The notes under the pieces: generated by a model
What the model saw: the letters and a program-made list of their open reading frames with translations, nothing else
Told to the model about the DNA's origin: nothing
Databases searched by the model: none
Position numbers and translations under genes: made by a program
Assembly: GCF_055900595.2 (NCBI RefSeq)
Contig: NZ_CM148325.1
Length of the DNA: 64,000 bases
Reading direction: 5' to 3' (one strand)
Part shown: positions 59,355 through 59,403 of the stretch, one piece after another
How the letters are laid out: each line of letters starts with the position of its first letter
Numbering within the stretch: position 1 is the stretch's first letter

Positions 59355-59361
59355 TATCTTA

Positions 59362-59389
59362 AGCCCTCTCCCGGTAGGTGAGGGCTTTT
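59362..59389 (+). terminator. hairpin downstream of ggt; candidate terminator
   Basis: Stem AGCCCTC / GAGGGCT followed by TTT. Confidence 0.4.
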
Positions 59390-59403
59390 AGATTACAAAT
59401 TCT

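Follow-up and report, generated by a model that had tools for sequence, protein, structure and literature searches.

A known counterpart of the locus considered here is the segment b3441–b3447 of Escherichia coli K-12 MG1655, in which a block of accessory genes separates the core genes ggt and yhhY. According to the MG1655 annotation, the order of genes is yhhY, yhhZ, yrhA fragment 1, IS1E (insA6/insB6), yrhA fragment 2, yrhD, yrhB, and ggt, with yrhA overlapping yhhZ by 4 bp and yrhB lying downstream. The presence of IS1E within yrhA is a known feature of K-12 (PMC12428005). YhhZ has been assigned to group 32 of the His-Me finger proteins, among the toxins in which a His-Me/HNH domain is fused to Hcp (PMC5714182). 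Hcp-ET1, an Hcp-HNH DNase, is described as an antibacterial effector delivered by type VI secretion, with orphan immunity genes occurring in E. coli as well (Ma et al. 2017, summarised in PMC6730261).

The ggt–yhhY Junction

The stretch of DNA analysed, referred to below as the window, comprises 64,000 nucleotides of contig NZ_CM148325.1 (assembly GCF_055900595.2). In it, ggt, encoding gamma-glutamyltransferase (57609–59354, + strand, 581 codons, stop codon TAA at 59352–59354), and yhhY, encoding a GNAT N-acetyltransferase (59404–59892, − strand, 162 codons, stop codon at 59404–59406), converge and form the left and right boundaries of the site. Between the two stop codons, a direct reading of the sequence gives an unoccupied intergenic spacer of exactly 49 bp, 59355–59403, with the sequence TATCTTAAGCCCTCTCCCGGTAGGTGAGGGCTTTTAGATTACAAATTCT. 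An earlier note on this DNA had described 49 bp and one hairpin between the two stops, a description that is exact for both the sequence and the open reading frames. In an NCBIfam search, the ggt product scores 1310 bits to the gamma-glutamyltransferase equivalog NF007187 and the yhhY product 368 bits to NF007527 (PRK10140 N-acetyltransferase), both far above the cut-offs. The RefSeq record of E. coli Z0117EC0005, which is 100% identical to the window over 57000–61500, carries an annotation that agrees on both genes. A literature search on the function of YhhY returned nothing usable.

The same two stop codons are 3,454 bp apart in MG1655. In a blastn comparison, the window aligned with MG1655 at 51924–59354 and 59405–64000, homology breaking at the stops of ggt and yhhY. 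The two strains are thus alike in their flanking genes, in the orientation of these genes, and in having breakpoints at both stops; they differ in what lies between, which is AT-rich acquired DNA plus IS1E in K-12 and, in the window, what we regard as the ancestral spacer, with another variant of the hairpin that follows ggt. The earlier note had stated that K-12 carries a yhhZ–yrhA–IS1–yrhB segment that is absent here, and had proposed an alignment with K-12 to define the breakpoints and any duplications made by the IS. The MG1655 annotation and blastn agree with this statement, MG1655 does not share the tight junction, and the alignment places the breakpoints at the two stop codons. As for the IS, IS1E (MG1655 3583428–3584195) lies inside yrhA with a 9-bp target duplication, GACATTAAA, on both sides, and GACATTAAA is present once in the uninterrupted yrhA of strain SSGw1. 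Both marks of an IS1 insertion, the 768-bp element and the 9-bp target-site duplication, are therefore found for IS1E, which is a feature of K-12 and not of the window. IS1E inserted later, into the yrhA of an islet that the K-12 lineage had already acquired.

Contents of the Site in Other Strains

Seven stop-to-stop distances were seen between ggt and yhhY. Three of them are empty: 49 bp in the window, 59 bp in a hybrid form, and 60 bp in strains such as the ST131-like MS14385 and TUM13881. The other four are 431 bp, with yrhB only; 1,855 bp in O157:H7, with a gene of the DUF4225 family; 2,676 bp, with yhhZ–yrhA–yrhD–yrhB lacking IS1; and the 3,454 bp of K-12. Occupancy was counted among 5,426 complete E. 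coli genomes. The ggt–yhhY junction is contiguous in 984 of them (18%), yhhZ is present in 3,806 (70%), yrhB in 4,069 (75%), and the O157-type DUF4225 gene in 343 (6%); the contiguous, yrhB, and DUF4225 classes taken together account for 5,396 of the 5,426. Conserved core flanks with alternative contents among strains, the mark of a presence/absence islet, are thus found at this site. The composition of the inserts is likewise deviant, with a G+C content of 31.8–34% (42% for the yrhB-only form) against 52–54% in ggt, in yhhY, and in the whole window.

Searches against Pfam give an indication of what the islet encodes. YhhZ has an above-threshold match to T6SS_HCP (45 bits) and a match to HNH of 17.4 bits, which stays under the cut-off of 21.4; YrhB matches Imm35 at 81.8 bits, and no Pfam family was matched by YrhA or YrhD. 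An Hcp domain followed by a toxin domain at the C-terminus, with an immunity gene next to it, gives the cargo the predicted make-up of an Hcp-ET type VI effector/immunity module. The likeness to the Hcp-ET1 effectors, one of domain content, concerns the cargo of other strains, in which the Hcp domain and HNH-like C-terminus of YhhZ are followed by yrhA and the Imm35 gene yrhB, whereas the window holds none of this cargo. We propose that the islet is an “orphan” module of type VI secretion, consisting of the Hcp-HNH toxin gene yhhZ, a putative immunity gene yrhA, yrhD, and the Imm35 gene yrhB, and that yrhB alone, or the DUF4225 gene in the O157 lineage, represents an alternative cargo. The phrase “Rhs/Hcp-associated toxin remnant”, by which the earlier note had characterized the K-12 segment, holds for the Hcp link, YhhZ being an Hcp-HNH effector by its assignment and accompanied by immunity genes; the segment is not an Rhs element.

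A different account of these genes, in which yhhZ–yrhAB forms an island “Gist34” with a function in methionine-to-cysteine conversion (PMC3309015), was set aside, as the function appears to have been taken over from Bacillus genes that share the name but are unrelated. The islet genes were also met in CABHOW010000200.1, a contig of 4 kb binned with an uncultured “Flavihumibacter” genome; it carries E. coli yhhX–yhhY–yhhZ–yrhA–yrhD at 96–100% protein identity and is probably E. coli contamination of that bin.

Direction of Change

To place the empty and the occupied states in order, relatives of YhhY were sought in one genome per species, and 40 loci were returned. The synteny yhhX–yhhY–ggt and a tight convergent junction are found at the Escherichia loci, except for one misassigned K-12-like contig, and at nearly all loci of other Enterobacteriaceae. 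The tight outgroup junctions measure 36–122 bp and contain a hairpin or REP-like palindromes. Within Escherichia, the spacer is 60 bp in Escherichia sp. E1V33, 62 bp in E. albertii, 70 bp in E. whittamii, and 59–60 bp in E69 and SCPM-O-B-8794, divergent Escherichia lineages labelled E. coli. Beyond the genus, where the spacers have palindromes of their own, the values are 81–86 bp in Citrobacter, 40–88 bp in Enterobacter, 89 bp in Klebsiella pneumoniae, 36 bp in Pluralibacter, and 122 bp in Lelliottia. Longer spacers were found at three loci, namely Franconibacter pulveris (2,859 bp), Pluralibacter UBA7423 (369 bp), and a contig labelled Chryseobacterium (231 bp), and at the Leclercia adecarboxylata locus yhhY and ggt are fragmented.

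The spacers are comparable in sequence as well as in length. Those of E. albertii, E1V33, and E69 closely match the window spacer, hairpin included, and those of E. whittamii and SCPM-O-B-8794 keep the position of the hairpin and its stem, with sequence differing on both sides. Set against the empty junctions of MS14385, TUM13881, E. albertii, E. whittamii, and E1V33, the window has the same spacer, the same hairpin position, and the same stem; the difference is one of length, these other junctions being 59–70 bp and the window lacking 11 bp, AAATGACAAAC. Matches extending over 80% or more of the window junction were found in about 909 E. coli genomes.

Tight junctions in the outgroups, together with an orthologous spacer that deletion of the islet could not recreate, argue that the empty state is ancestral and that the K-12 segment is a gain. 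We consider it very probable, on this comparative evidence, that 59355–59403 is an ancestral, never-occupied spacer between convergent core genes, and that the K-12 segment was gained there, not lost here. The earlier note had spoken of a segment that is absent and that the strain lacks; the absence from the window stands, with the refinement that, given the outgroup junctions, the K-12 segment is a gain of K-12.

Edges of the Insert and Mode of Entry

All occupied alleles have roughly the first 36 bp after the ggt stop in common, including a variant of the hairpin, GGCCCTCTTC-GTGG-GAAGAGGGCC, and diverge beyond. The same variant, elsewhere seen only beside the islet, is found in an empty form: in GPEC1354, where the spacer is at 2601–2659 of the locus, and in 73 other genomes, the variant hairpin is joined to a right half of the ancestral type, TTAAATGACAAACTTATATTGCAAATTCT, giving a hybrid spacer of 59 bp. 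This hybrid could be the haplotype that existed before insertion, or a product of excision or recombination. In the 4,490 genomes that have the variant hairpin, similarity to the hybrid spacer ends 30–31 nt past the ggt stop; therefore, the left edge of the insert coincides with the 3′ foot of the hairpin. On the right, the insert comes to within 0–5 nt of the stop codon of yhhY, and 29 bp of ancestral sequence have disappeared. When the empty allele was aligned locally with the full, O157, and yrhB-only alleles at either end, homology ended at the stop codons, and neither a target-site duplication nor leftover spacer was found at the borders of the islet. Neither an integrase gene nor a tRNA gene is annotated at the islet, which on that count is not a classical integrative island.

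The sequence of events that we propose is that AT-rich foreign DNA would have entered the ggt–yhhY spacer in about 81% of E. coli genomes, with the left insertion edge at the 3′ foot of the hairpin and the right edge a few bases from the yhhY stop. Since the occupied alleles agree over the 30–31 nt that follow the ggt stop, and not further, one may go on to suppose that type VI cargo preferentially enters at the foot of the ggt hairpin without the help of an integrase, and that the diversity nearby may stem from diversifying selection over long periods, or from recurrent replacement by DNA from outside the species, around a toxin/immunity site. We hold this extension to be speculative and rather unlikely.

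Possible Secondary Loss and Mosaicism

The main alternative to a never-occupied site is that the ancestor of this lineage had the yhhZ–yrhA–yrhB islet, and that the islet was later deleted, or replaced through homologous recombination by the empty allele of another strain. The neighbourhood is indeed a mosaic. The last 600 bp of ggt (58755–59354) differ by 3–6% among E. coli strains, as much as between Escherichia species, a patchiness that suggests frequent recombination. In yhhY, E. coli has two allele classes with about 81% nucleotide and 84% amino acid identity. They diverge only within the coding sequence: the breakpoints fall at the two ends of the gene, and the flanks are 95–100% identical. 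The window has the common class (class I); the rare class, with about 162 representatives among the 5,426 genomes, is not closest to any sampled outgroup and has an empty junction in all four of the examples examined. Given such a mosaic, the empty allele could have been re-imported by recombination, and the 59-bp hybrid spacers of 74 genomes could themselves stem from excision or recombination. Moreover, phylogroup B2 is polymorphic, ST131-like strains being empty and ATCC 25922 having yrhB; since B2 holds both states, gains, losses, and the exchange of alleles by recombination are not separated from one another there. Two forms of YhhY at this locus were likewise observed in Enterobacter and Lelliottia.

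Against secondary loss stands the spacer itself. It has the ancestral-type hairpin and a right half as in E. albertii and E1V33, not the hairpin of the occupied alleles, and a deletion would not restore these features. The 49 bp contain no relic of islet DNA by blastn against K-12 or by local alignment. In addition, the lineage to which the window belongs is a rare one of 18 genomes, and the 12 of them that are among the matches listed are contiguous across the junction, 11 with the 49-bp form and one, R32_14_1F, with the 60-bp form. On balance, we regard a secondary loss as improbable and a never-occupied ancestral spacer as the better reading. An assembly artefact, in which the islet would have been collapsed or omitted, has a negligible probability: nothing was found in its favour, an identical 249-bp ggt–yhhY junction occurs in eight independent RefSeq complete genomes, the 984 genomes noted above are contiguous across the junction, and orthologous spacers exist in the outgroups.

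The Hairpin in the Spacer

The G+C-rich hairpin AAGCCCTC-TCCCGGTAGGT-GAGGGCTT occupies 59361–59387 and folds on both strands. Its stem consists of 8 bp, AAGCCCTC/GAGGGCTT, plus two inner C-G pairs. Folding yields −21.1 kcal/mol for the + strand and −18.5 kcal/mol for the − strand, and z is about −3.1 relative to shuffled sequences. A search of the 64-kb window found the pattern a single time, where chance would give 0.02 occurrences. In the spacer alignment, the stem is kept across Escherichia, with changes on both sides, hence compensatory, at four pairs. In E. albertii the hairpin loop reads GCCTACCGG, which corresponds to the E. coli loop, CCGGTAGGT/C, in reverse complement; therefore, the palindrome has been inverted in place between these species.

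From the position of the hairpin and its conservation we infer that it most likely would act as a shared two-way transcription stop, or as a stabiliser of 3′ ends, for ggt and yhhY. Like two-way intrinsic terminators, it is a single G+C-rich hairpin that can fold on both strands, with 6 nt between it and the stop codon before it and 16 nt between it and the one that follows. Unlike them, it has short U tracts, of four residues in the direction of ggt and UUAAGAUAUU in that of yhhY, and a simple scan for consensus terminators did not call the hairpin at 59361–59387. The stem-loop is stable, and the number of U residues after the stem is four in the 49-bp form and only two in the common 60-bp form. 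Two other identities were considered for the element. At the Rfam gathering threshold, the only family found in window positions 57000–62500 was RyhB, none falling in the spacer. Nor is the hairpin a dispersed repeat of the REP/BIME type, as it is single copy in the 64-kb window; queries with the junction found a median of one and a maximum of two places per E. coli genome. The RyhB small RNA itself lies at 60043–60107 on the + strand, between yhhY and yhhX (RF00057, 83 bits), with a terminator called at 60082–60100.

The 49-bp Form and Its Lineage

By the spacer alignment, the 49-bp spacer is the usual 60-bp empty spacer minus the 11 bp AAATGACAAAC, lost just 3′ of the hairpin. This lineage-specific deletion converts GAGGGCTTAAAT into GAGGGCTTTTAG, and so creates the TTTT run at 59386–59389 (+ strand), directly 3′ of the hairpin. 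An identical 49-bp spacer is present in at least 14 genomes, some of which have ggt flanks that are 2–5% different, and either class of yhhY allele. We propose that the lineage of the window would have retained the empty site, the 11-bp deletion beside the hairpin being the sole change.

Over the 47 kb that align, window and MG1655 share an identity of about 95.2%. Over the ftsYEX–rpoH region (39500–43500 tested), at least 99% identity was found in only 18 of the 5,426 complete genomes, the next level being 97.5%. Given the identity of about 95% to MG1655 and near-matches in 18 genomes, the source belongs to a rare, deep-branching lineage labelled E. coli; that this is “cryptic clade I” is our inference only. 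A local import around ggt was considered as the cause of the 94–95% identity to most E. coli, and rejected, as the whole window is at about 95% to MG1655 and ftsYEX–rpoH, a housekeeping segment, has its near-matches in those 18 genomes only. From Z0117EC0005, the window differs over 50 kb by 11 substitutions and one 9-bp indel, at 34595.

Other differences in gene content from K-12 are found in the window. A hypothetical-protein gene between zntA and tusA (34559–34867), absent from K-12, holds the 9-bp indel just mentioned, and a tetratricopeptide-repeat gene between ugpB and livF (51001–51747) is also absent from K-12. A second tight convergent junction is present at 8747–8754, where the stops of yhhJ and nikR are 8 bp apart at the place where K-12 carries the rhsB block. 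The earlier note was right that the rhsB element is missing, the K-12 block rhsB–yhhH–yrhC–yhhI (MG1655 3618991–3625674, 6.7 kb) being absent. Its mention of a polyketide island that K-12 lacks needs a change of name: a cluster of about 15 kb, at about 14776–29789 between yhhT and acpT, is present here and absent from K-12, and it is annotated as being of the aryl-polyene (Ape) type, with ApeI and ApeP dehydratases, ketosynthases, acyl carrier proteins, a glycosyltransferase, a LolA-like protein, and an MMPL transporter.

Implications

The empty ggt–yhhY site is an ordinary difference in gene content of a kind already documented, and there is nothing new in kind about it. What it shows is the direction of the comparison: at this site, K-12 represents the derived state and the window, very probably, the ancestral layout, a distinction that helps to annotate the “absences” of a pangenome correctly. 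At this site the strain is without an orphan Hcp-HNH effector and its immunity set, of which the Imm35 gene yrhB is part, and could, in principle, be unprotected against kin that fire matching toxins. The ggt–yhhY site offers a clean, small example of the turnover of cargo between convergent genes.
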